Source of the DNA: Laetmonice hystrix
Lineage: Eukaryota
Assembly (NCBI GenBank): GCA_965235115.1
Contig: OZ249436.1
Location: 12,216,001 to 12,276,000 of the forward strand
Direction of reading: 5' to 3'
DNA: 60,000 bases
How positions within the stretch are numbered: the first letter of the stretch is position 1; every line of letters starts with the position of its first letter. The notes beneath the pieces were generated by a model. It searched no databases. It was not told where the DNA came from and saw only the letters and a list, made by a program, of their open reading frames with translations. Shown here piece by piece: positions 1 to 48,816 of the stretch. Made by a program: the position numbers and the translations under genes.

Positions 1-32
1 AAACCCCAAAGGCATATCATGACTTCTCTTTT
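1..32 (+). ncRNA. 3' end of a Y RNA-like Pol III gene (copy 0), truncated by the window start
   Basis: CCAAAGG-catatca-TGACTTCTC-TTTT at 6-32 matches the 3' half (upper-stem strand, TGACYTC stem strand, T4 terminator) of the seven complete copies downstream. Confidence 0.6.
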
Positions 33-1338
33 CATCAAGCAAAAGGCTTTATTGCAATTTGAACGTTGATCAATACATCCCCCCCCCCCCTCCCACCACC
101 ATGTCCCTTCCTTTCTTATCCTCACGTCATTAAAATGTTGCTTACCTAATTAATAAAATATCACTTTCCTAAAACATTTTCTCACTGTCTTTTACCAATC
201 GAGGATAAGCCCTGATTTGTTGTGACTGACGATCAGAATATTTGGCTGCCGGAACCTTGGGAAATGATCCACTGAGCCACACCAGGCAGGGTAATCCATG
301 TTGTACTCAATAACCCCGTACAGCATACAGTATGGAGAGGTGGGGCCCAAACATACAAGATCAATTGGACTCGCTCCTCGTCCAAACGTACCTCAAGTCG
401 CCATCCGCTATCTCTTCTTCATAACTTGACATCCATTTGATATAAAGAGACAGTAATAATAACTAAGAATCCGAATGTTTTAAATCTGTCTTTCTCCCTT
501 TCTTTCTTTCCTTTCCTCCTTTATTCGCTTCCTTCTTTTTTTATTGCCCCTCACCAATCTGTTTGAAGGTATGAGATAAAGCCCCTACACTGTACAGTGA
601 ATATACCTCTGACGAGAGGAGTACAGTGTACAGAGGCCTCGATAGTTCCCAAAGTTCCCTGTAGGTGTCCCAGACTCCAACCTTTGAGCAACACGAGGCG
701 GTTGCAGCCTCTCTCTACCTGCCTTCAGTTAGCATAGACCTTACAGAGACATGACAAATTCCTTGTATACATTTTAATGTCGGTGGCTGGAGGTATACAT
801 GAGATTTATCGCCGCCCAACAAGTCCGGCTCGTTGGTATCCCGCCCGCCCGCCCGCCTCGCCACCCAGCCACTGGCCATCCTAAGGTGGACATGATTCTG
901 ATAACTCCGGTGCACTCCTACCATCTGGCTTGGAGTTCATGTTTACAATCGTGTCAACTCCAGCTGTCAGTACCAGATACACCCCCATTCCTTCCAGCTG
1001 TTCAACCATAGAGTATACTCAATGGTTCAACCGACTTCCCCCTTGCACCATCCGTGTCCTTCCCCACACTACATCGTTTTGTGCACTTCACTGTGATGAT
1101 ACAATTCGCGGTTGCCATGGCAACCCCCGAAGCCCCCTCTCTCTCGGTTTCCACCATGTTGATCGTCTTCAGAAATACGCCAACAAGACAGACAAAATCG
1201 GCACAAAGGCGCACTTTGTCTTGGGATCCGTAAACCGAGCATAATTAAAATGTTCACCATTGTCTAAGAGTCTGTCCTTGCTGAAGTACATGCCAAGAAA
1301 CCGTACCTGAGCAGCGCGGATCTTGACCAAACGGTCGG

Positions 1339-1398
1339 GTTATGTTAATGAGACTGCCAGGGCAGAGTGAGCCGGAGATGGTGAGGTGGGTTTATAAG
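1339..1398 (+). promoter_or_regulatory. Type-3 Pol III-like promoter (PSE-like element plus TATA) of copy 1; equivalents precede all seven complete copies
   Basis: A degenerate TAATNAGA(C)TGCCAG-like motif ends 59-63 nt upstream, and a TATA box starts 28-32 nt upstream, of each RNA start. Confidence 0.65.
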
Positions 1399-1420
1399 TA
1401 GGGGCACCTTCTCTCAGATC

Positions 1421-1531
1421 GGGAGGTCCGGAACCATTGGGCCCCCATGCTTCTGCATGAGATTACTTCTCTAGTATCCCATAGCTGTGTCTGGTCATTG
1501 TGCCCCCAATGGTGACCTTGACTTCTCTTTT
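1421..1531 (+). ncRNA. Y RNA-like Pol III small RNA, copy 1 (~111 nt)
   Basis: TATAA at 1393. 5' GGGAGGTCCGGAACCATTGG pairs with 3' CCAATGG-tgacct-TGACTTCTC, followed by TTTT. Upstream element TAATGAGACTGCCAG ends at 1360. Confidence 0.85.
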
Positions 1532-2344
1532 ACTATCATACTGACAACCTAAACGGTTTCACGCCGTAGAGATTTGGTTTTAACCCCTTGATTTATTAAA
1601 GGTTCATATACCTGACCAACGTATGCTTTATTTCAGATGAAACCAGAGATGTCGGTACATTACATGAAAATTAGACTTACTGTCTGTCAGATCATCTGCA
1701 AAATGTTGATACTATCTGCCATATATGTCTATCATTGTTTCACCTATAAAATTGCATATCTTATTTATAGGTCTAGAAAATGACAGGTAAGGACAGAATA
1801 TCCCTGTCCTTATCTCTAAGTTTTCAATTGTGTCAGAACTAAATTGTATGTTAATAAAAAAAAAATCAATAATCCAATCAGTCAGAAAGCCAGTAGGACG
1901 TCCACTGGCTGGGTGTTAGATTCCTGCCACTGTCGGTGACCGAGACCACCACCCAGCCTCTGCTTCCTGCCGTCTGATGCTGCCAAACCCCGGCTGTATG
2001 CCGGTCGATCTGCCGGTACCACTCCCTGGTTCAGTCCTCGCCATCTCTCAGCCACTTTTTCCACCTGAGACGCTCAGTCAGCCATTGCTTCACTCATAGA
2101 ACACTGAACATATCCACGCACCTTCCATATAGCCACATAATAACCCCTAACGTCGCTGATAGCAAGTTTGTAAAAATGTGAATTTCTAATGGCAGCGTTC
2201 TGAGCGAGCCAACCATACGATTTCCTCAAGGCGTACACCTGAATCAAGCTAACCAAAGCCCGTGATATGATAATGAGATGGCACTGATGTTGGAGGGAGA
2301 CTAAAACAGTCGGTATATAAGAGTGGAAGGGCCACTACTCCACT

Positions 2345-2445
2345 GAGGAAGTCCGGAACCATTGGCGACTTATGCATGCTATTAATTTCCCAGTAAAACA
2401 TAGACATAAACATTGTCCGAATGGTGTAACATGACTTCCTCTTTT
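2345..2445 (+). ncRNA. Y RNA-like Pol III small RNA, copy 2 (~101 nt)
   Basis: TATATAA at 2314. GAGGAAGTC pairs perfectly with GACTTCCTC (compensatory changes relative to other copies). CCGGAACCATTGG...CGAATGG upper helix; TTTT terminator. Confidence 0.85.
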
Positions 2446-2940
2446 GGAAATTGTGTTCACAACCCCAAATATACTTGGGCTGACCGTACAGATTATCAAA
2501 TCTGTTAATGTTTTTCAAAAGGTCATTTTGTATTGATTGTGCTGGCCAATGGTTGTAAAAATGGCATCTATCGCCCTATGATTCATAGTGTAAAGGTTAT
2601 GCACATGCAGCACATACATTAATTATTTTATCCTTTTTTTAACCTTTATCTTAACCTTTTACAGTACAGCAATACATATAATGCTAATTTCTTTTTTTTT
2701 TTGGTGGGGGGGGGGGGGGGTGTTGTAAACAGTTCCTGGAGAAATGTTTATTGGTGTTGGACGTTGTTTACCCATCAACTAGAGACCAAACATTCGGTTG
2801 GCAGTTGTAGAAACGAGATGTCATACCTGGTGCACGCACATAACGTTTTTATCATTCAAGGTTGCATCCTCGGGCTGATAAAGTTAACTTTTGCCACGTC
2901 TCACAATGACATACACTGATATATAATGCTATAATAAAGC

Positions 2941-3150
2941 CAGTGCTGCCAGCTGGATTTGACCAAAAAAGTATAGAATTTTTCAAGAGAAAAGTATCCA
3001 AATTGTCGAGACAAAGTATTAAAAAAGTACATATATGTATTATTTAAAAAGTATTTTTTTAAAGTATTTGCACCTGAAAACGTATGAAAAAAGTAGTTTT
3101 GCTCGTAAAAAGGTATAATACTTTATAAAAGGTATAAAGTGGCAGCACTG
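2941..3150. mobile_element. MITE with 6-bp target-site duplication
   Basis: TIR CAGTGCTGCCA / TGGCAGCACTG, flanked by TAAAGC on both sides; internal AAAAGTA repeats. Confidence 0.7.
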
Positions 3151-3889
3151 TAAAGCACTTTGAGCTGTATATTTCATCTTTGAATCAACACTTCTCTAAA
3201 GTTTGCTGTATAACCCTTTTGACCATCACAGGCTGGAGCGTCCATCTCCTACAGGCCTGTTCGTTATTGAACGAAATCCTCTAACTGCCTTCTTCACATC
3301 TTGGTGGCCAGTGTTCCCTCGAGTTTATAGCACTAGTTCAAAATTCTAATGAAGCAGTGATGAAAGAGGGAGTTAGAAAACAGATGGAAAAACATACAGT
3401 AGCCTTGGAATAACAGATCACAGATGTAAAACCCGGTATAGAGAAAAACTGATCAGACAACCAAACCTGACCATCTCCCTATTGGAAGCAATGGATAATA
3501 TGAAAGTATCGTCAATCTGAGTCACCCCCCACCCCCGACCCCACCCACACCCACACCCTCCCCATTCTTTCAGCTGACTCACTGATTCAACACTAACAAC
3601 TCCAACGGCCTCATCAGGAACTGCTCGGACCCACTGGCATAGCAACTAGGTCTATTCTAATATTTTCTCCAAAATGAACCTAAATAGAAAACCATCTCTT
3701 TCAACACTCTCACCAAAAGTCGCATAAAAGTTCCTCCTTCTGATCCATTATTTACCAAGTGTTTTCCATTAATTAAAGCCTGAGAAAACGTCAATGATAA
3801 CTGTGAATAATGATAATCATTGGGCAGCGTGTGTGAGTGACGTGACGGTGGTGGGGGGTATATAATACAGGAGATGGCAGAATGTGTCA

Positions 3890-4106
3890 GAGAGGTCCGG
3901 AACCATTGGCCCCGGCAGGCTACTCTATGCAAGGCTCTCCGATAAGGCCCCCTGATACTGACTGATGATACTGCCTCTGGTGCTAAACAAAATGTCAAAA
4001 ACTACAACTGACTTGAAGTACACGAACGAAAAGACACTCCCTGAATGTAGCGGCAAATAGGGCACTAATACCGTGGGGGAAAATGGAACCTCAGACCTCT
4101 CTTTTT
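3890..4106 (+). ncRNA. Y RNA-like Pol III small RNA, copy 3 (~217 nt)
   Basis: TATATAA at 3859. GAGAGGTC/GACCTCTC stem; CCGGAACCATTGG...AAATGG; T5 terminator; no internal T4. Confidence 0.8.
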
Positions 4107-5223
4107 CTCTATTTGATAGCGTTCTCTATCTGATAGTGTTCTCTATCTGACAGCTTGCGTTGCTGTGACGGAAAGTGAAAAAATCAAATTAATGCGCAAC
4201 GAATCTTTGAGGTTTCCAGCAATGGATTTCTTCTTCGCAGCATATATTTACTTATACTTAAGTTTACTCTGCTAATTCGCACTAGTTAAAGCTTCACAAC
4301 AAAAAGAATGGCATACACCAGACCCTCTTCTTCCAATCGCCAGGAGGTTTTCAATTTGAGCAAATACACGACCGGTGTGGCGCAACAATGAATATCATAT
4401 TTCGACATGTTTGTTTAACCCCGAACACACATTTTCTCCCGAAATGAAACACTGAGAGCTGCACAACTTTCAGTCTGGCGACACGCGGGTATCAATAGAT
4501 TTCCGCTTAGCAGGAGCAAGTGGCGCCACCTCGCGTGAAATTCTTGTTCTAATATTTTCAAACCTTTTTCATTACGTTTGAAGAAAGTTTTTCTATTGGT
4601 TTTATTCATCTATTTGTTCAAATATACAATATAGGGGGGGGGGCTACTTATTAATCAACTTACCTACTTATTCAGCTACTTATTCATTTTAATTATACTC
4701 ATGCATTCAACCCTCCTGCCCCATCCATGACCGTATAAACTCCAAGTGCTCTTACAAAACTTGCGTCCACTGAATGGCCTTTGGACGTTATCCGTGCGTT
4801 ACCCGTTTCTACCACTAGGTGTCAGTGCCATGAAGCGACATCTAGTGTTATCCTCAGGTACCCGGAATTCCCCGATGTGTAATCGACGGGTATGATTCAC
4901 AATTCTCCGGGAAGCCCGGAATTCCATGCCGATGCTGACTCAACCCTCAGACCATCGATTCACAGCAATGTCTTTATCAGAAGACCTATACCGACAAAGA
5001 ATTGCTGCGTTTATTGGAAAATCGGCATAGTATGTAAATATAAGCCACACTAAAATATGTTCAAAACTTACACTGTCCCGATGCTCTTAAAAATTCAATA
5101 ACAGTTTTGATGTAGACTTCACAATATGTTACAAATGATTTCCAGAATTCTAATTACTATCCAGTGGGTCGGGTGTACCATGGCGGTGAGATACTATAAA
5201 GCATGAGTGAGGCACTTCTAACT

Positions 5224-5417
5224 GGAAGGTCCGTGCCCATGTTCTGGACGGTTGTGCATACCACATTGAAAGTGAAAGTATGAAGAATCACGTTGTAGAG
5301 ATGTTCTGTCCGTACGTCTGTCTGTTGTACCCTGTATAAGTTGCGGATTGAGTTTCAACTTGCCCACAGTTTCGTCTGACAACTGACGCCAGCATGGGGA
5401 ACTTGACTTTCCTTTTT
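5224..5417 (+). ncRNA. Y RNA-like Pol III small RNA, copy 4 (~194 nt, divergent)
   Basis: TATAAA at 5195. GGAAGGTC-CG...CTTGACTTTCC-TTTTT. Upper helix covaries to CCCATG/CATGGG. Confidence 0.8.
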
Positions 5418-6097
5418 ATGATAAAATATCATCCGTCTTTACACTCACAGGAGTATAATAAAGTCACTTAATTGAGCAATGTGATGCAATGATAAGAGTG
5501 AATCCAGGATGCTGGAATGGAGGGGGTTCTTCTTCTTCATCGTCTTTTTTTTAAATGTTCTTTTGTTGCTTGTACGTTTTCTTCTTTTTAACAGCGTTCA
5601 CGTTGGATTCGCTGCGCAACCACCAGAGCCCCCTGGCGTGCGTGGAGGAAGGTGAGTTTGACCCGATTGGCGGCGGTCCAGGGTGCACTGACTGGGAGCT
5701 GAGGTGGGAGGCAGTCCGAGGCCAGACAAGCTCAGTCAGTCCACCAGACGGGCGGTGGTGGGTGCATCCTCCCTGCTCTCACTACCCGCTACACCCGCTA
5801 TACTCCTGGCTCCCACCCCCACCCCACCCCTATGCCAGGCCTCACACCTGAATTTCCCCTCAGCTTAATCATTTTCTCATTTTCTAGCAAGCCAAGTCGT
5901 TTGATTCTAAAATAAGCTAAATCAAAATCTGCCAAAAAGCATTATCCTTGAATTTGCAAAAGACTGCCGAGATACGCATAGCTATAGTTGCAGATATCCT
6001 ACCCAAAGGGTTCTGGATTTCACATTAGATGCCAGCGGATGGTAAGTGCCAGGCTCCGTGGCAGGTATATAAGTGGGTTGGAGAGACTTAGTAAGTG

Positions 6098-6276
6098 GGG
6101 AGGTCCGGAGCCATTGGCCGTGAAAGCAACAGCCCCCAGGGTAGGGTGGTGTATGTCGAATGATGAACGCTTCCCGAATGTGGTGCTAGAGAACCCAACA
6201 CTGAAGCTAAGCTTCCCAACTAGAAAAATGATTCTAAAATATGTGAAACTTCAATGGCAAGCTTGACCTCCCTTTT
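6098..6276 (+). ncRNA. Y RNA-like Pol III small RNA, copy 5 (~179 nt)
   Basis: TATATAA at 6066. GGGAGGTCCGGAGCCATTGG...TCAATGGC-aagc-TTGACCTCCC-TTTT. Confidence 0.85.
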
Positions 6277-6703
6277 GAATTGCCTTTTGATCAATCGATG
6301 TATTTATCAGACTTCCTGATAACTTTTAATTTTCTTTAATATATGACTATTTCTTTACCTAAATTTTACCCCCCCCCCCCCCCCAACTCAGCCTGTTTTA
6401 TTCCCTGCATTTTTCTATACTATAAGTACCTGGTTGATTATTGCATGTGCATGAAAACAGTTTGACTTTGGGGAAGAAAATGTTGGAGAAGCCTAACTCT
6501 TCGAAGTCAAATTCCAGCTATGATTCTCAAAGCCAAAGATAATGATTCCTAACAATTTATTCACCTGAGCCAAAACTGTTAATGAAAAGTCTACACAAAT
6601 TCTCAAACAGGGCGTCGGGTGGGGTCAAAAGTTACCCTCCACTCAGTCCTGATGCAGGCTGATCCCTCGCCCTCCAACAGTTTGCTAATCAGACTGGGCA
6701 CCT

Positions 6704-6860
6704 CAGGGCCGTAACGGGGGCGGGTCTGTACCCCCCACCCCCACCCCCGGTGCCAAAGAAAGAAATTCATTGGTCATACGGTGCTCGCTTCGCTTGCACT
6801 TTACACAATTCCGCCCCCCCCCCCCCCCCCCCCCCCAATAAATCTCTGGCTATAGCCCTG
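6704..6860. mobile_element. Non-autonomous DNA transposon remnant (hAT-like ends)
   Basis: CAGGGCCGTA...TATAGCCCTG imperfect terminal inverted repeats with poly-C subterminal tracts. Confidence 0.45.
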
Positions 6861-7849
6861 CAACTTGCCATTCTACCGGACATTCCTAACGCTTGAACAG
6901 ATTTCTTTTTTATTATACGTCTCGATTTTTTTTGTACACAAACGTACTACGACATATCCTCGCACGTTTACTTAGGTCCACGTGCGTTGCAACGACAGCT
7001 TCACTGTCGTATCGATCTGTCGTCCCGGCCTCTGACGTCACACCGCCTGGCGGGAGTTATGTTAATGAGATGACTCATCCAATGGGAGCACGCGGCCCCC
7101 GATCCCCACCCGTTACCATGGCGTGAGGCAATGTTTACCAACAGCCATTACCGCACGTGTGCCATGTGAACGCTATCATAGACCAGCCTGACAAAATCAC
7201 TCAATTTAGCTGCTTTGTTTTTTCTCGGCTCTCACTACAATATTCTACCCCTGAATGAAATATGCGAGTCCGGCTAAATGATAATGATCAACAAAATAAT
7301 TGTTGGTTACTTTTCTTCCAATATGGGATTTTTAAAGAGAAAACAAGATGGTAACATCATGACTGGTTTCCGTAAAAATCCTTATCTGTCCTTGAGTTTT
7401 GGGAGTAGAAACAAGTTGGCCAGCTCCAGGACTGTGACATCCCATGGATCGTCTCATTAACATAGATTTACCGACATCTCCGGGAAACCCCATCACTTAC
7501 TGACTCATGACTGCAACTATTCTCTCCTTCTGCAATGTCTGTCCTTTCTGACTCAGCTAACAGTCCGACAAAGGATGACTAAAATGGCAGTAGACCTTCT
7601 CTTCAAACCACAATATATGGGAATTCCCCCTAAAACACAAGACATTTGAATTTGTCTTCCAAAACTACGTTAATCAAACACTGCAAAACTTTCTGTGCAA
7701 CCTATCAATATAAATATTACCGCTGAGGACGCGATATAACGGGAGAACATCTTGTACCAATGGTCGGGTATGATGATGTGCTGCCAGTGAACCAAAGGTA
7801 CTCGCATCCTTGGTTGGCATATAAGGCGATCCGTGGTACCACACAACAA

Positions 7850-8169
7850 GGGAGGTCTGGAACCATTGGCCCTAGGGTTGGAACGGGAACACCACTAGCT
7901 ACCTATATGTTATCATTGTCTTCTATGCACAAACGTTACATTCCACTGGGTAAATCATGCCTGAGAGAGCTGTGCCTGCCCCTTGAATGTTTCCCTGAAA
8001 CCCCCTCTGTGCCCCCCCTCCCCGTGCCTGACCAGTATGAATGTCTACACCCACGTCCGACCAACCAAACACCTCACCATCAACTTCCACAGTGCCTTCC
8101 AAAGCACCGAATGGTCTTCCTACTGAATCAGTGATGGACAAGGGTCAATGGCCCTATGACCTCCCTTTT
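7850..8169 (+). ncRNA. Y RNA-like Pol III small RNA, copy 6 (~320 nt, long loop)
   Basis: CATATAA at 7818. GGGAGGTC/GACCTCCC stem; CCATTGGCCCT pairs with AGGGTCAATGG; TTTT terminator; no internal T4 over 320 nt. Confidence 0.8.
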
Positions 8170-9345
8170 GCTCTCAGTAAAGCGAGTTTGAGAGAAGACA
8201 ATGCAACACAACAATCTCTTACTTCTTAGCTTTTTCTCCCTGGCGATTCAACTATTGTCCAATTTTCAAACTTTAATTTTTCCAATTTGAAAGAACCTGA
8301 AGTAGGATGTTGTAGGATGTCTACATCACTGAGATTTGATTACTGATACGGGACTCGTATCATCTGTGTTTCCAGACTTTGCGTCTTGCTAAACTTTCTT
8401 AAAGGCACTCCAAATACCAGAACCTGATGAAGGCTCCTGGAATCTTGAGCGTGCCAACCCAGTGATTTAAGCCTATATCTGAGTATGTCCCACGTAACAG
8501 TCGGCAGGAACTGTTCCCGATTCAATGGGCCAAAGACAGCTACATATGCAGTTACGGGGTACCTTATAGCAAATCCAACACCTCTTGGACTATAAACCGA
8601 AGAGTGGTTATAATATCGGTTACTGGATGATATGCTGACTATTACCGCATTGGAAACACCTCCAACGAGTCACAGAAGGTAGTTTCCTATTGATAGAAGT
8701 CCTCCAAAATGAGCCGCACCTCTGCCCACTAGTCTATGCAGGACGACACATAGCGCCGGGTTGACTGCTGACTGCCGCAACCTGGCCATTCTCAAGCACC
8801 TGTTACATGGCAACTATCTGACACTACTCCTCCACTTTCCATAACAGACCTGGCCATATAACTTTATAAGGTAATAAAGTAATAATTTCACGCAATAAAT
8901 AATGTGGACATTACGCTTGAACTGAATCACTAAGGCTTTTTTTTTTATCTCTAATGCAGTACCGTATATAGCATGTTATCAGTGGAAGTTTATTTTCAAC
9001 AGTGACCCATAAAATATTACTGTCCACAAAGTCGGCAATTCCTCCCTCACTATGAGCCCTACCAAATCCAATTAATTCTCACACTGACACAGCCAGATGT
9101 CAAAACCGTCATGATCTCTGGCTGGATATTTTCACCTATTCTACCCCTTATATACTGATATTTCTGTTCTATGATTTAATGAAAATGTCAAGAAAAGTCT
9201 GGGCTTTTGATGGATGAAAAATGACGCCCAAACACCTGGCCAGTGTCCAGTTCATGTTGTATTAAGTGTTTCATCTATGCACACCAGCTGGGAGTTCAGC
9301 CTGGAGACAGTGACTATAAAAGGCAGTTCTCTCATACACAACAGT

Positions 9346-9440
9346 GGGAGGTCCGGAGCCATTGGATAACCTGATCCCTGTTAACAAAAACTTCACCTCT
9401 ATTCCAATCAATTACCCAATGGAGACTTTGACTTCCTTTT
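9346..9440 (+). ncRNA. Y RNA-like Pol III small RNA, copy 7 (~95 nt)
   Basis: TATAAAA at 9315. GGGAGGTCCGGAGCCATTGG...CCAATGG-agact-TTGACTTCC-TTTT. Confidence 0.85.
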
Positions 9441-10408
9441 GTGACTTCAATCTTTGAATATTGCTTTGCCATGAAAAAGCATGACTTTGCACATAGATAC
9501 TATTCCAAATGAATTTTAGCATACACGGTATCAGAAAGAGAGGAATAATGTATCATTTATGAATTTTCAAAAAATGATAAAGAGTTACATGTATATCTTT
9601 TAGGGAAAAACTTTGAGGAGTGAGGTGGGTTGTGGGTTTTTGTCAATACATGTAATATTTTTTAGCAAAGGCAGAAATAAAGTACACCGTACATGTACTT
9701 TATAATGAACCCACTCATCAAAACTTTTAACAAGAATTATCTTTCTCCTCATTGGTACGATGGTCTCAGGAAAAAAAATTAAGATTTTCCGATTGTTACA
9801 TAAAAGCTAGAAGAGCCCTTCTATGTCGCTTCTGATAAACTCAGTTAGAATGAACAGCCAACAACATCTACAACCTTTACACTAGTGTTGTGGCTCATTG
9901 CACCTATTGCCCTGGTACAGTGTACATGTATAGGAATGCGTCGCAGACGATATTAATACCTGCTCAAATCACCAGGTGGCAGCAGCGTACCACGCTGTTT
10001 CTCACAATCTTTGTGGTCAAATTATAAACAATTTGCAGTTCAATACCTCTGACTTTGGAGATTCCGCCTTATGGTTTCTACAGCTACCTTTATCTATACA
10101 CGGTATACCAGTGTCACTAAATACCAGACAGAGGGTTAGAACTTTTACAAGAAGCTGTATTTGTGCTATGATGCTATGAATGTGTTTGTTGAAGGTCCCA
10201 CTGATGCTATATATCTAGAACATAGAAGCCCGATTATCTCTGACCCTCACAAATCACCTGGTGCACAAAAACATGTTACGTCCAATTAAAACCCGATTCA
10301 TATTACAAAGCAAAATCAGTACACACAAGGGCTACAATTCAATAAAAACTCTTAACAGTTTCTAACTCTTCAGTATTCTCTGGTACTTGTGTAATGTGGT
10401 GTACTTAC

Positions 10409-24244
<13,836 letters not shown>

Positions 24245-24953: not shown

Positions 24954-27900
24954 ATGACGAAAAGGGAAGCAGACTTCACGGGAATGGAAACTCTTGTTGG
25001 ATTTGAACCTCGTAAGTTGCGCCAGTCTACCACTGCGGGCAGTACTGCCAGTGCCCGGCAGTGGGGACACGTTGTCGTTGGATGGGTTTCGTTGGTTGTT
25101 GTGACCCCTTTGTCCTTACTGCCTCAGTGCTTTCAGACATGGTGTCACGATCTCCGTGAACCCCACCACTGGGAGGAGCTTGACTTCTTCTCGTTATAGG
25201 CACGATATTGCCCCTGACCTTGTCATTGACACGATAATTTTAATTTGGCAGTGCCAGTGGTTATTTTGCCGGCATGTGTGTGTGTGGGGGGGGGGGGGGG
25301 GGGTCATGTGACTCTAATACTGGATTCCTATTGGATGATCGTGTATTAAATTTACAACCAATTTGAGATTAAACTAACACCCTAACGGTTAAGCCTAAAC
25401 CTTAACCCTAAGCCTAACCCAAACTTATGATATTGTTTCGCATGTTTGGCGCCAGGCCATTGAGAAATGGGGACCCAGTTTCGCGGTCTGTTTTCTCGGG
25501 CGGTCTGTAATCTCCGGGAGCATGGTTTCCTATCAGGGTTTCCGCCAGAAAACAAAATTAGGGTGACCTCCAGTCGTCTGCTAGCTGATGGGGGTGGAGT
25601 TTTCTTCCAAACAGTAATAAACGACAGCCTGGAGAGGCAAATTATGGACCAAAACTGACGGAGGCGAAAAGGGTTATTACGTGAGACTCCATGATCCTGA
25701 CCTGATATTTCGGATAGTTTACCGAGAATGATACAAATACACACGACTGCAGCCCACCTCCCGAAGATTCCAGACAGCGGAGAAAACAGACCACGACACT
25801 GGGTGTTTAGAAAAATGGGGTCCCAGTTGAAAAAAATTAAATGGGGTCCCAAAATAAACTCAAACTGAACCAAACATTGTTATATATGGTGGATACAGTC
25901 TGTTTGAGAAAATATCTTTTCTGGGAGTGGTTTCACGAAAATATTTAAGGGCAGGATTCCACTTTAGTTTTAAGTCACCCATTTCAAAAGTAGGCAGGTG
26001 TTTCTGTCAAAGATAGGATTTTTGAGATTGCCTGATCCTATCAATCTTTTTAACTATGATGGTATACACAAGTATGCATCATGGAAATTTTCAATTCAGA
26101 ATGAATTCCAAATATCACCAGACAGAAGGAGCCCTTACCTTAGGTCTACTGGCGTAATACTAATAGATCTATGGCCTACCTGTAGCCACAAACTCGCTTG
26201 TCCTTTACCCTTGCAACCCCCCCCCCCTCCCACCAGCTACCAGGACATCCCGCCCATCCTCATTTCCTCCCCCCCCCCTCCCGCTCGCCTGACGGGACAT
26301 CCCTGCCCACCCTTGCCTCCTCCCCAATCCTGCCCAACTGCCAGGACAGCCCCACCCTCCTCCCCAATCCTGCCCGACTGCCAGGACATCCCCACCCAAC
26401 CCAGTCTCAGTCACCCGACCGAGACTGCACCCAACCTTGCCTCCTGCCTGAATCCCAAGACAGCCATGCCCACCCTGGCTGCCACAACGGCCAGGCCAAG
26501 CAAAAAGCCGGGGCACTGACGACGTGCATTCACTGCATACACGGGACGTGCCAGCTTCTTCATTTTTGTGTCGTCCCCCCTCCCCCACCCAATTTCGTTG
26601 AAAAAATTGATACGACGGACGGCTTTCATATCATCAGCATAAGCAGCAATAAGCGACCTGTTAGTAAATCAGTCATCAGGGGATGTCGCTGTTTGGGGAT
26701 GTCGCCAATTGGGGACAAAATTCTTAGTACTTAAGACAGGCCCCAGAAATACTGCTGACTGGATGTTAATTGAAGTTAAACACACACTACTCAGTCACTC
26801 ACTCCAGTAATAGGGTGGATGTTTGATGTAAGAAACATACTTAACATAGGCATTGGAAGATAATTTTTTCCGAGGGGGGGCTAAAGTCAGCCAACTCAGG
26901 CCAACTCATTGACAAAATAGGCTGCTAGGCACAGCTGAGTGGGGTTCGGCAAAGGGCGACTCTGCCCCCTGCTTGGATCATGTCCGAAGGCCAAAGCAAC
27001 CTCAAAAACCTCCAAACAACCCTAATTTTATTTTACACTCCTGGTCCCCAGTCAATCATTTCTGGCCCCAGGACATCTTATGCCCACAATTATACAGGGG
27101 TCGAATTACGTTGGTCAGGGGGCACGGCAATAGTTGCCTCAGTGGACATCCTGTGATTTGTAAGGGCACCGCGGCAATTTCAAGGACTGTTGAGGGGCAC
27201 CAAGGCAATTTTAAACTTTTGAAGGGGCACCAAGGCAAATCACACATTAATCTTATTGACAAGCCCGTATACATAACATTCTTCAATCAGAGAAAAGGCC
27301 GCTGACGACAGATAAAATGATAATGATAGGCAAACGCCGCAAAGAAGGGCACCAAGGCAAGAGGTGAAAAGGGCACGGCATTTTATTGCCGCCGTTAGAG
27401 ATACAATTAAAGGGGCATCACAGCAAAGGCTAAAGAAGTCACGGCATTTGCCGTGGTTGCCGTCGTGTAATTCGACCCCTGATTATAAATAAACTACCCT
27501 GGGCTTACCTTAAGTGAAATGCCAGCTTGCTGAGTGGTAATAAAACTTATTTGGTCAGGGTGGAATTGAATTTAAGGCTTGTTCAGAATCTGAATTTTTA
27601 AACAGTTTGGCTTCAGTTGTAAAAGTTGGTACTAGAAGATACATGTATTAAATTCCAACCTTTTTTTCTACAGAACTGTCATCAAACTGGCCTCCAGAGC
27701 CAAGGAAACGCAAGAAGCGTAGCAGATGGGGAGGTGATGACTCTGAGAAGGCTTTCATCCCAGGAATGCCCACAGCTGTACCCATGGGCATGACAAAGGA
27801 GCAGGAAGAACAGTATCTAGGTAGGCTATAATGAACACAACTGGCTCTCTGTTTAGGACAGGACAAAACAGAACTCAATAAAACCAACAGACCGAGCAGA

Positions 27901-46866: not shown

Positions 46867-48154
46867 AATCACTAATAATGGTCACAACACACGGTGAATA
46901 ACAGGTCTATTTAGCCGTAGTCACGGGCCATTACCTGAATATATATGTGAAAAGTGAATCATTGTTCTTTTTTTATGCGTTCTGGTATGCCTTTCGACAT
47001 GACCTTGAATATTTCATGCGGTCGATATATCTCGGGCGTACATAAGAAGGGGGCGTGAACTCGTGCATACATAGGCCTACGTGTTGGCATAGATCTATAT
47101 CCGTGTGCGGGGGATATTGAAGGTTGGAAAGAAGCTGCACTAAAACGAAGCTGTAGACTTAAGTATTTTGGTTAGCGCCTTCCTCTCCCTTTCTTCTTCT
47201 GCTCAGTTCTTCTTCTTCTGCTGTCTTCTTCTGCGGCGATTAGCGTTTTTAGTCTATAATGGCCGAACCGCAGTGCAACGACGCAGAGAAGAGGGCGAAG
47301 AACTTTGCTGTCGATGGCGCAGAGAAAACTGCGAACTTCTCGGCAAAAAAAATGAATTTCCCCCTCTTTCGGTTAGGTACAATTACAATTTCAGGAAATA
47401 AAACATCACATCCATTCGGATTATAAATGTTTATTACCATTATTATATGCCTATAAAAGGGCATCAAGGCATGTGGTAGATAACGAGTCCGGGAGGAAGG
47501 TTCGAGGCGTTCTTTACGGGGGTTAAATAGATAAAACACGAGTCGCCGGATTTCTGATTCTGTCGACACATCTAGGCCTATAATCTGATACAGACAAAAT
47601 GTGACAAAGGCTGCTACGATTTGGTTGGACAGGAATGTAGCCTATATATCACGCAGCTAACAGGCATGGATCAGTTAACTTAAATATAGCCTAGCTTTGA
47701 TAGACCGGTCTCTCTAAACCATGAATTGGCTGTTTGGTCAGAAGACATTCCTGATCATTAATTGCTTTTTGTATAAAGGTCTAGATCTACCTACATTATT
47801 CTCAACCTCACTGACCTTGGCAAAATGACACCTAGTTACGAGAAGCCAAACTAACCTGGATGTCAAATTGAATATCGTCCCAGACCTTCTCTTGGATTGT
47901 TAGCCTGAGAAATCCATAGTTAGACTCGAATTAGGGAATGGGGAGAGGTATCACCCGGCTTCACAGTGATGAACTTGTATGCTGGAGTTTACAGCAGGTG
48001 GCAGCACCATATCGTACAACTTCCGTGCTTACCGTTAGACTGAGGGGAGATGCTCTTCGATATCCCCCGCCAGACTGTATTTTTCTTTTGAAATGCACGG
48101 GCATCAGGGGTAACCCAATTACTTTGACAATGTCCCTAAAGAGAAAAGTTGTAT

Positions 48155-48254
48155 AGTCCTCTACAGGAATCGAACCCCGGCCCCAAGATTACTGCACCCA
48201 TTCGCATAGCATAAGGTGTCGACACCCATGCCCACTCGGCCACCGCCACTCCCC
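48155..48254 (-). mobile_element. tRNA-derived Pol III unit (SINE head or tRNA pseudogene), copy 1
   Basis: A-box TGGCCGAGTGG (rc 48232-48242) and B-box GGTTCGATTCC (rc 48166-48176), then TTTT; acceptor stem does not pair. Confidence 0.6.
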
Positions 48255-48487
48255 TAAAAAAGGAGCTTTGGTGGTCGAGCAGGACAGTGGACCTTCCCCT
48301 CTACACACATCTTTCGAAATGAGACGAAATCCATATTTTCCTAGATAGAGCTACACATGATTACTACCGAACATTGACTGTTAAGGTAATCCTGGCACTG
48401 GCGTAGACTGTATTTTTCCTTTGAAATGCACGGGCATCAGGGGTAACCCAATTACTTTGACAATGTCCCTAAAGAGAAAAGTTGTAT

Positions 48488-48587
48488 AGTCCTATACAGG
48501 AATCGAACCCCGGCCCCAAGATTACTGCACCCATTCGCATAGCATAAGGTGTCGACACCCATGCCCACTCGGCCACCGCCACTCCCC
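48488..48587 (-). mobile_element. tRNA-derived Pol III unit (SINE head or tRNA pseudogene), copy 2
   Basis: A-box rc 48565-48575 and B-box rc 48499-48509; same unit as copy 1. Confidence 0.6.
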
Positions 48588-48816
48588 TAAAAAAGGAGCT
48601 TTGGTGGTCGAGCAGGACAATGGACCCTCCCCCTACACACATCTTCCGAAATGAGACGGACTCCATATTTTCCTAGATAGAGCTACACATGATTTCTACC
48701 GAACATTGACTGTTAAGGTAATCCTGGCACTGGCGTAGACTGTATTTTTCTTTTGAAATGCACGGGCATCAGGGGTAACCCAATTACTTTGACAATGTCC
48801 CTAAAGAGAAAAGTTG

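Follow-up and report, generated by a model that had tools for sequence, protein, structure and literature searches.

Y RNA-like genes, predicted to be transcribed by Pol III, are nested antisense in a long intron of POLR3A

Positions 1-10408 of the window (the whole stretch of 60,000 nucleotides that was analysed) make up most of a 12.7-kb POLR3A intron that probably hosts eight type-3 Pol III Y RNA-like genes, likely partners of Ro60. Each unit would be an independent gene with an external promoter like that of U6, with initiation at the G-run of GGGAGGUCCGG and termination at a T4-5 run. In the predicted transcripts the paired 5' and 3' ends would form a lower stem of 8-9 bp; above it one C is bulged out and the 3' strand leaves a few bases unpaired, before an upper stem that is capped by a variable loop. 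A U-tail would end the RNA. Such RNAs would partner Ro60 in a Ro RNP (RNA surveillance, stress response), with La on the U-tail, and by analogy with the mammalian Polr3e-MIR case they would slow Pol II head-on in the host gene only modestly, if at all.

The host gene, RPC1/POLR3A, lies on the minus strand; a 1389-aa RPC1 (P0003) used as tblastn query matched exons between 24241 and 10407 of the window. An earlier note on this DNA had placed the end of the last exon in the window at 10409 in front of a GTAAGT donor, and the minus strand indeed reads ...GCCACCCCAG|GTAAGT (CCAG|GTAAGT) there. The note had also reported that the C-terminal RPC1 motifs are absent from 1-10408 and had proposed an intron of more than 10 kb. 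The same query detected no C-terminal RPC1 exon in 1-10406; the next matches (aa 1238-1363) are at L002:7690-6573 on the minus strand, L002 being the 10 kb preceding the window, and the exon bearing LGIEAAR is located 2.3 kb outside the window, ahead of position 1, with its acceptor AG at L002:7691-7690. The missing exons are outside the window, so they are neither within 9440-10408 nor absent, and the intron hosting the units is 12,719 bp long. It is 3'-proximal, before codon 1238 of about 1390. The remark that all other POLR3A introns here are shorter than 2.1 kb was close but inexact: in merged tblastn blocks from six RPC1 queries the other inter-block gaps are 55-471 bp, with one exception of 2,576 bp (15134 to 12557), which covers a poorly conserved protein segment. 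Pfam gave no match among the nine longest ORFs of the window part of the intron (1..10408). The features are listed in Table 1.

Table 1. Coordinates of the host gene and of the antisense units
Feature	Position	Strand	Description
RPC1 exon	10409..10520	-	codes approximately aa 1201-1238; donor GTAAGT at 10408-10403
Remaining RPC1/POLR3A gene in window	10409..23278	-	25 tblastn exon blocks
Window part of the 12,719-bp RPC1 intron	1..10408	-	extends 2,311 bp past window start, to L002:7690
Ya, 107 nt	3' end at 1..32; start L010:1496	+	5' GGGGAGGTCCGGAGCCCTTGG; 3' end ...CATGACTTCTCTTTT; TATAAAA at about -30
Yb, 111 nt, Y RNA-like gene	1421..1531	+	CM 96.9 bits; TTTATAAG at about -30
Yc, 101 nt	2345..2445	+	orthologues L088:3000-3097, L082:3586-3682
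Yd, 217 nt, long loop	3889..4105	+	ends pair; terminal T4; no internal T4; TATA and 3' partner present
Ye, 194 nt	5224..5417	+	TATAAA at 5195; 5' GGAAGGTCCGTGCCCATG, 3' CATGGGGAACTTGACTTTCCTTTTT; MFE pairs ends; no internal T4
Yf, 180 nt	6097..6276	+	CM 41.6 bits; no internal T4
Yg, 320 nt, longest loop	7850..8169	+	3' partner CAATGGCC...TGACCTCCCTTTT at 8146-8169; MFE pairs ends
Yh, 95 nt	9346..9440	+	CM 89.2 bits; TATAAAAG at about -30

A looser motif scan places eight complete units on the plus strand of the intron, all antisense to POLR3A, and finds no minus-strand unit; seven are wholly inside the window and Ya begins 74 nt before it. The motif GGTCCGGAACCATTGG, with up to 3 mismatches, occurs six times, always on the plus strand and within 1425-9365, a count reached by none of 100 shuffles. 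The small-RNA genes that the earlier note had described on the opposite strand are real, but they do not fill the intron: they are dispersed through it at a spacing of 0.9-1.8 kb and cover about 10% of its length (1,131 nt for seven and 194 nt for Ye). Unit lengths range from 95 to 320 nt, four being 95-111 nt and the other four 180, 194, 217 and 320 nt. The units were missed by ARAGORN (0 genes in the 60-kb window), Rfam gave no match at gathering score in the window, and Rfam E-value scans returned nothing relevant. The ARAGORN result in the 60 kb and the lack of any Rfam tRNA or SINE match speak against a tRNA gene array or a tRNA-derived SINE.

In all eight units a TATA element stands at about -30, RGRRGUCYG occurs at the 5' end and the complementary GACYUYY at the 3' end, and a T4-5 run directly follows the lower stem; the 5' start GGGAGGUCCGG pairs with the 3' ...UUGACUUCUC, the bulged C being present. 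TATAA or TATAT starts within -36..-21 in 7/7 units tested vs 4.3% of intron positions, and the eighth unit (Ye) has TATAAA at -29. Internal T4 is found in none of the eight (joint chance for seven approximately 0.002 vs random segments of the same intron); in Yg no T4 occurs across 316 nt, for which P = 0.14 in a random intron segment of equal length. U6 genes of the same genome carry CTATRAGAYGACACC at -74..-60 and TATATATA at -30..-23, and the Yc promoter has a PSE-like TAATGAGATGGCAC at -74..-61 and TATATAAG at -31..-24, with spacing as in the U6 genes; ATGAGAYG.CA-like blocks and TATA stand at U6-like distances in the units. Resemblance to U6 in the PSE-like block is moderate: three units agree at 9-11 of 18 positions when correctly offset, and in the remaining units the best ungapped match landed on the TATA box instead. 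Both the units and the U6 genes place a PSE-like block near -75..-60 and a TATA near -31..-23, and both end in a T-run terminator; the U6 genes differ in having an unrelated transcribed sequence and in being packed into tight tandem arrays (C2, C12 and C21). From this anatomy we infer transcription by Pol III.

MFE folds pair the 5' and 3' ends in 8/8 units. In Yb, GGGAGGUC pairs with GACUUCUC, followed by the bulged C, the upper stem ACCAUUGG/CCAAUGGU, and then T4; in Ya the CM matches both halves and scores 81.5 bits over the whole unit; in Ye the upper stem differs in sequence (CCCAUG/CAUGGG). A MAFFT alignment of seven sequences (A2) has the lower stem 100% paired, 92.2% of all cells paired and 4 pairs changed on both sides, and its covariation score was reached by 1 of 500 shuffles. 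In a CM-fitted alignment of 15 rows from three organisms (A4), which includes near-identical C3 rows and one truncated Yb duplicate, 94.9% of cells pair and 7 of 16 pairs have changed on both sides, values reached by 0/500 shuffles; slid registers of A4 pair at only 34-66%. The covariation supports the unit stems.

The antisense nesting, whose synteny the earlier note had proposed to check in related species, was also found in two other organisms, represented by metagenome contigs. On L082 (JAAUXT010074603.1) minus-strand RPC1 exons flank an intron of about 2.7 kb with three plus-strand units, and L088 (JAAUYG010015877.1) carries downstream RPC1 exons with two plus-strand units upstream of them, so that 3/3 and 2/2 units, respectively, are antisense in the same RPC1 intron. 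The organisms are deeply diverged: identity at fourfold sites among the three is 33-36% (saturated), and orthologous units have 76-83% column identity. The Yc loop block TGCATGC.A.TAATTTCCC is invariant across the three organisms, and the orthologue at L082:3000 has no clear TATA. Because orthologous units share the intron and the orientation in these two organisms, antisense nesting in this RPC1 intron is ancient.

Dispersed repeats with variable internal sequence might be mobile-element copies (SINEs or retroposons) or dead pseudogenes, and Pol II snRNA genes also use a PSE-like element, but we judge all of these origins highly improbable. The units have no tRNA-like part or A/B box (ARAGORN 0) and no poly-A tails; their conserved promoter is external to the transcript, so that retroposition would leave it behind; a genome-wide search with the unit-specific motifs yields only three loci; and orthologous positions are conserved across species. 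The stems are maintained by compensatory change, and the combination of TATA at -30, a terminal T-run and the lack of T4 inside the units points to Pol III rather than Pol II.

The likeness to Y RNAs is in the ends of the units. The excerpted text of PMC4726728 defines the Ro60 site by a helix of 7 bp, a bulged C and a bulge on the opposite strand; in the units the helix has 8-9 bp (GGGAGGUC/GACUUCUC), the C that follows is left without a partner, and the 3' strand also has unpaired bases. In architecture this is a putative Ro60 site. The excerpt of PMC13501136 gives the human Y RNA 5' ends as GGCTGGTCCGA in hY1/3/4 and AGTTGGTCCGA in hY5, and the hY3 3' end, from a reverse primer, as ...CACTTGACTAGCCTTTT. 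The units read GGGAGGTCCGG ... CTTGACTTCTCTTTT, with GGTCCG at positions 5-10 and CTTGACT before the tail, and the GGUCCG and CUUGACU of the RNAs are identical to these human ends in the same register. The most conserved part of the units is this Ro60-site core (GGUCCG with the bulged C, and CUUGACU). A predicted external Pol III promoter and a 3' oligo-U (putative La site), by which Y RNAs are also recognized, are both found. As far as the excerpted sources describe them, vertebrate Y RNAs (hY1, hY3, hY4, hY5) resemble the units in being small Pol III genes with external promoters, in their end-paired lower and upper stems around a variable loop, in the C that is bulged out behind a helix of 8 bp, in having GGUCCG at 5-10 and CUUGACU before the U-tail, and in the clustering of several divergent paralogues at one locus. 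Unlike the vertebrate cluster, the units are nested antisense inside POLR3A, an arrangement of Y RNA genes for which the literature searched held no report.

The genome encodes a full-length Ro60, a 546-aa ORF on C18 with a TROVE match of 174 bits, which aligns over its full length with human RO60 (9nen; E 4e-162) and with Xenopus Ro at E 2.8e-160. The Y RNA architecture together with the core sequence therefore makes RNA partners of the encoded Ro60 the likeliest function, and the RNAs would be expected to bind it. The same RNA family occurs outside POLR3A in at least six copies on C3 and one on C19.

Several features set the units apart from vertebrate Y RNAs. The Rfam Y_RNA model RF00019 (gathering score 38 bits) has no match in the window at gathering score, and none at E<=10 on 12 kb, on 146 nt, or genome-wide, so that this curated model does not recognize the units as Y RNAs. 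Four of the eight units (180-320 nt) exceed the size of 100 +/- 20 nt that is given for Y RNAs, and the other four (95-111 nt) fall within it. The upper-stem A/GUG-CAC/U (RUG-CAY) motif, which the PMC4726728 excerpt reports for Y RNAs and sbRNAs and ties to DNA replication, is absent from 7/8 units, which have CCAUUGG/CCAAUGG or a variant (UUG-CAA); AUG-CAU upper stems are found only in Ye and in the C3 copies (CAUGGG/CCAUGG). Nematode sbRNAs and the Y-like RNAs of insects and amphioxus are, like the units, multi-copy Y-like stem-loop Pol III RNAs, and such non-vertebrate RNAs are recognized by structure and short motifs rather than overall sequence (PMC4726728, excerpt; sbRNAs compared by description only).

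The units could also be type-3 Pol III stem-loop RNAs of another class that merely resemble Y RNAs, either sbRNA-like replication factors that do not bind Ro60 or lineage-specific RNAs. The missing RF00019 match and the great length of half of the units would fit such a class, as would the absence of most nematode sbRNAs from Ro immunoprecipitates stated in the PMC4726728 excerpt. Against it, conservation is strongest in the Ro60-site core, in human register, the replication-linked upper-stem motif is mostly absent, and a full-length Ro60 is encoded; we find this class assignment quite improbable, and prefer Y RNA-like genes that partner Ro60.

The earlier note had further suggested that Pol III units head-on to POLR3A form an autoregulatory circuit. 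Its structural premise holds more strongly than claimed, with a 12.7-kb intron, eight antisense units, promoter and terminator features, and synteny, and its mammalian precedent, the antisense MIR in intron 1 of Polr3e, was cited accurately according to the excerpt of PMC5358760. There the Polr3e-MIR acts as an antisense-specific roadblock with an approximately 1.5-fold protein effect, and a feedback loop was proposed without demonstration, Pol III products being unchanged (Yeganeh et al. 2017, PMC5358760). Like the units, the Polr3e-MIR is a Pol III unit lying antisense within an intron of a gene that encodes a Pol III subunit, and it is conserved across species; head-on Pol II interference and possible feedback were proposed there. 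The two differ in that there are eight units rather than one, with type-3 external promoters vs an internal A/B-box SINE, in a host encoding RPC1 (catalytic) vs RPC5, and in a 3'-proximal intron vs intron 1. By analogy, an autoregulatory roadblock like that of Polr3e-MIR is plausible.

It would be a further step to regard the units as a selected negative-feedback sensor, in which high Pol III occupancy slows or aborts Pol II in POLR3A and RPC1 falls, a reading that leaves room for the units to be Y RNA genes as well. All eight units are antisense to the host, intron and orientation are kept in L082 (3/3) and L088 (2/2) despite saturated synonymous sites, the host encodes the catalytic subunit of the enzyme expected to transcribe the units, and the Polr3e-MIR roadblock works only antisense, its authors having proposed a feedback loop (PMC5358760, excerpt). 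However, orientation is inherited through tandem duplication, and therefore all 13 antisense units may trace back to one evolutionary event, and nested genes tend to remain nested through linkage alone. Other family loci exist on C3 and C19, so Y RNAs need not come from POLR3A; the intron is 3'-proximal, not promoter-proximal; and the effect in the precedent was only about 1.5-fold with Pol III products unchanged (PMC5358760, excerpt). On balance we consider a selected sensor unlikely. An ancient Pol III homeostat, in which Y RNA genes placed head-on in POLR3A throttle Pol II and limit Pol III's own catalytic subunit, is likewise doubtful; if true, it would have arisen independently of Polr3e-MIR and yet converged with it, and would couple the output of Ro/Y RNPs to the dosage of Pol III.

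Beyond vertebrates and nematodes, the catalogue of Y RNAs is poor. The unit family was missed by Rfam, and its eight divergent paralogues with orthologues in two organisms provide a ready covariance model, which may be used to find Y RNAs in neglected animal lineages. In the literature covered, Polr3e-MIR of mammals is the only experimentally supported case of a Pol III unit interfering with a Pol III subunit gene (PMC5358760, excerpt). A second, independent and conserved case, here involving the catalytic subunit and eight head-on units, would make Pol III self-limitation by interference directly testable in another lineage. If the nesting is neutral, the locus would still be a clean example of a small-RNA cluster kept in a host intron while the surrounding neutral sequence was replaced.

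The gene for RPC1 (POLR3A), the largest, catalytic subunit of RNA polymerase III (Pol III), lies on the minus strand of the window, where a 106-aa exon at 16741-17058 matches 659 RPC1-type proteins. The assembly searched comprised 627 Mb in 35 contigs, the window being C1:12216001-12276000, and the 40 kb preceding the window were also taken in. In a tblastn search with a 1389-aa RPC1 query (P0003), RPC1 exons were found in the window from 24241 down to 10407 and none in 1-10406, in agreement with the earlier note, which had seen no C-terminal RPC1 motifs in 1-10408. The final exon within the window ends in ...GCCACCCCAG at 10409 and GTAAGT follows directly, exactly as that note had read it. 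The search of the flanking contig that it had proposed was run and placed aa 1238-1363 on the minus strand of the 10 kb before the window (L002:7690-6573), and an acceptor, ...TTACAG at L002:7691-7690, precedes this next exon. Since the donor follows 10409, the intron measures 12,719 bp, where more than 10 kb had been predicted. The accompanying statement that all other POLR3A introns are shorter than 2.1 kb is roughly right, the remaining inter-block gaps being 55-471 bp (six RPC1 queries merged) apart from one of 2,576 bp, which covers a poorly conserved segment of the protein. None of the nine longest ORFs of the long intron has a Pfam match. The RPC1 protein, that of an invertebrate animal, is about equidistant from its annelid, mollusc, nemertean and hemichordate counterparts.

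The intron has a higher GC content (0.41-0.46) than the rest of the RPC1 gene (0.36-0.41) and contains the homopolymer runs G15 (2706-2720), C16 (6369-6384) and C23 (6814-6836). Some 4.5 copies of CACTACAAACAGGACCTGCACAAAA, in a tandem repeat with a 25/50-nt period at 11394-11505, adjoin or overlap the RPC1 exon block 11695-11483. Upstream of the 5' end of POLR3A (25970-26740), overlapping open frames, rich in proline and 141-182 aa long, occupy both strands of a GC-rich patch. At 48072-48800, words that return every 332-333 bp three times (48073, 48406, 48738) indicate tandem repetition with a unit of about 333 bp.

The long RPC1 intron harbours eight Y RNA-like units (Ya-Yh), whose DNA motif came to light through a peptide pattern that recurs in the six-frame translation. 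At up to three mismatches GGTCCGGAACCATTGG has six sites, all on the plus strand (1425-9365), a number reached in 0 of 100 shuffles. Alignment with the flanks resolved four conserved parts, namely a block upstream, the TATA box, the start (GGGAGGTCCGGAACCATTGG) some 25-30 nt past that box, and a downstream block (CCCAATGGTGAC.TTGACTTC.CTTTT) complementary to the unit start. One unit (Ya) spans the window start, and the eighth (Ye), with a divergent upper stem, was detected by its 3' signature. A loose scan of the intron for RRGTCYG with a TATA box or the 3' partner returned exactly eight plus-strand sites with both and none on the minus strand, which bears out the earlier claim that small-RNA genes lie here opposite to POLR3A. 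Tandem- and direct-repeat finders missed the units because their conservation is limited to about 20 nt at each end. ARAGORN found no tRNA gene in the window, and a tRNA array was rejected as a reading of the units, and in Rfam searches of the window and its parts no family reached the gathering score and nothing relevant appeared at E<=10.

Coordinates of the Y RNA-like units in the window and in three metagenome contigs, with the RPC1 exons of two of these contigs
Feature	Sequence	Position	Strand	Length	Remark
Ya	window	-74..32	+	107 nt	
Yb	window	1421-1531	+	111 nt	
Yc	window	2345-2445	+	101 nt	
Yd	window	3889-4105	+	217 nt	
Ye	window	5224-5417	+	194 nt	
Yf	window	6097-6276	+	180 nt	
Yg	window	7850-8169	+	320 nt	
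Yh	window	9346-9440	+	95 nt	
RPC1 exon, aa 1084-1238	L082 (JAAUXT010074603.1)	5958-5217	-		intron of ~2.7 kb to next exon
RPC1 exon, aa 1238-1389	L082	2472-690	-		
Unit in RPC1 intron	L082	3000-3118	+		
Unit in RPC1 intron	L082	3586-3682	+		
Third unit in RPC1 intron	L082	~4662-4969	+	308 nt	no internal T4
RPC1 exon, aa 1238-1262	L088 (JAAUYG010015877.1)	1999-1925	-		
Unit	L088	start 3000	+		
Second unit	L088	start 3936	+		cut by contig end
Unit	L083				1.2-kb contig, no exon

A TATAA or TATAT starts within -36..-21 of all seven units tested, as against 4.3% of intron positions; in Ye, TATAAA stands at -29. An internal T4 is absent from all eight units, although T4 starts occur once per 86 nt on the plus strand of the remaining intron; random segments drawn from this intron put the joint probability of such an absence from seven units at about 0.002. 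In the U6 genes of the same genome (21 matches to RF00026), CTATRAGAYGACACC occupies -74..-60 and TATATATA occupies -30..-23, and the units carry a block related to this U6 PSE (in Yc, TAATGAGATGGCAC at -74..-61) with the TATA box at a U6-like distance. The PSE similarity is moderate, the best ungapped match falling at the expected offset in only 3 of 10 Y-like units. In combination the features match type-3 Pol III genes, and from this we infer Pol III transcription. The U6 snRNA genes themselves form tight tandem arrays, repeating every 1.5-1.7 kb or so, on three contigs or more (C2:53918286-53925299, C12:19150366-19153659 and C21:10844573-10856349).

In the MFE folds of all eight units the first 8-9 nt pair with the last 8-9 nt ahead of the T-run, and beyond this helix a single unpaired C is followed by a second stem. 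With seven units aligned by MAFFT alone, 100% of the lower-stem cells and 92.2% of those of the whole structure are paired, compared with 34-60% in slid registers; four pairs are changed on both sides, and the covariation score was equalled in 1 of 500 shuffles. A second alignment, with 15 rows drawn from the three organisms, has 94.9% of cells paired (34-66% in slid registers) and both-sided changes in 7 of 16 pairs, with none of 500 shuffles attaining any of five measures, its rows being fitted to the model, those from contig C3 near-identical, and one a truncated Yb duplicate.

According to passages in Kowalski and Krude (2015, PMC4726728), Y RNAs are Pol III transcripts of 100 +/- 20 nt in which the two ends pair into conserved lower and upper stems enclosing a variable loop; at the Ro60 site a 7-bp helix is combined with one bulged C and an opposite-strand bulge, a U-tail serves La, and the vertebrate genes are clustered at one locus. 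Human Y RNAs start with GGCTGGTCCGA (hY1/3/4) or AGTTGGTCCGA (hY5), and hY3 ends in ...CACTTGACTAGCCTTTT, as given by a reverse primer, in passages of a second paper (PMC13501136). The units begin with GGGAGGTCCGG, with GGTCCG as positions 5-10, and finish with ...CTTGACTTCTCTTTT, with CTTGACT ahead of the last four helix bases; positions 3-4 differ from the human RNAs, and complementary changes at the 3' end compensate. A full-length Ro60 is encoded in the genome by an uninterrupted 546-aa ORF on C18 (E 4e-162 against human RO60 and 2.8e-160 against Xenopus Ro), the nearest named Ro60 proteins being 54-58% identical. This locus (G000:C18:24761186-24762121; L024:856-2496, minus strand) is a single, apparently intronless ORF, and two more TROVE-domain loci lie on C8 and C5, the latter multi-exon. 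On the other side, RF00019 (Y_RNA) has no match in the window or genome-wide, four units of 180-320 nt exceed the 100 +/- 20 nt of Y RNAs, and the upper-stem RUG-CAY motif is missing in seven of eight units; for these reasons the units are termed Y RNA-like and kept out of the Rfam family. Judged from promoter, fold and ends, they probably form a cluster of Y RNA-like Pol III genes.

Elsewhere in the genome the family has further loci. Exact matches to GGTCCGGARCCATTGG number four, all within the RPC1 intron, and a BLAST-type DNA search with Yb returned only the self-match. A two-ended pattern combined with the covariance model (R1) yielded two: on C3, a plus-strand group of six or more near-identical copies at 9843976-9856835, and on C19, a single minus-strand copy roughly 25.2 kb into the contig, with satellite-like DNA beside it. 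The C3 and C19 copies have TATA, start, bulge and tail as in the intron units, and the C3 upper stem differs in sequence with its complementarity kept. Within the C3 cluster (L062-L066) start-to-start spacing is 826-3535 nt and the flanks are near-identical too, which suggests recent tandem duplication. C19 opens with a satellite of more than 10 kb (C19:1-12000; L069, L070) with long open frames and a repeated basic peptide (GKSAGKKPRRSKWGQRRSQRGRQ...), and its Y-like gene is situated some 13 kb beyond that. Outside the intron, C3 and C19 the census, made by pattern searches, is a lower bound, since upper-stem-independent patterns do not beat controls (28 matches versus 93; the extra yield consists of unverified singletons, e.g. 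on C4 and C13). A genome-wide pattern of TATA and 5' end was too loose (616 matches versus 414 in the control, mostly an unrelated repeat); an abundant dispersed repeat of the shape TATAAAAAATTAAATTTGGCAAATTTGAG(G)nTCCGG (G000:C1:3546210, 5342268, 10535784), probably a transposable-element terminus, dominates the loose search. A pattern match on C20 was rejected as a family member, as the covariance model gave no confirmation.

Metagenome contigs scanned with the 19-mer GGAGGTCCGGARCCATTGG gave 14 loci, three with full-length covariance-model matches (L082, L083 and L088); the other 11, without such a match and two of them with weak partial matches only, are attributed to chance. The synteny check suggested earlier thus gave a positive answer, with plus-strand units and minus-strand RPC1 exons in both L082 and L088. 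Yb-like, Yc-like and long-loop units keep a collinear order along the intron across organisms, and such collinear, co-oriented units in the same RPC1 intron mean that nesting and orientation are older than the split of these organisms. At fourfold-degenerate sites of shared RPC1 codons the three organisms are 33-36% identical (13/38, 20/56, 16/49), which is near saturation, and blastn found no similarity among them in the intron outside the units. Mean column identity of orthologous units is 83% in the Yc group and 76% in the Yb group, one loop block is invariant in all three organisms, and in the L082 orthologue of Yc two upper-stem pairs are changed on both sides (CCGAAGG/CCATCGG vs CCATTGG/CCAATGG).

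The earlier note had proposed that head-on Pol III units could act as a dosage sensor for POLR3A, citing the antisense MIR that interferes with Pol II in Polr3e intron 1. Its account of the latter agrees with passages in Yeganeh et al. (2017, PMC5358760), by which the MIR blocks Pol II only when antisense, POLR3E protein is about 1.5-fold lower, and a negative feedback loop is proposed, not demonstrated. As in Polr3e, Pol III units stand head-on in a Pol III subunit gene and are kept across species, and this shared logic speaks for feedback. The present case is more extreme, with eight units and the catalytic subunit gene as host; it also differs in that the intron is 3'-proximal, the unit promoters are external and the RNA family has further loci elsewhere. 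Tandem duplication, however, hands on the orientation of a unit, and a nested gene is not easily dislodged, so that conservation alone is no proof of selection for interference. We consider feedback of Pol III on POLR3A through the units unlikely. Such feedback and a cluster of Y RNA-like genes are mutually compatible. In the literature searched, only general Pol III papers, judged from listings, touched on these subjects together, and no report of Y RNA genes antisense in a POLR3A intron was found. The RNAs themselves are new members of an already known kind of RNA, and their conserved nesting in POLR3A is a new form of the single known arrangement of Pol III units within a Pol III gene.
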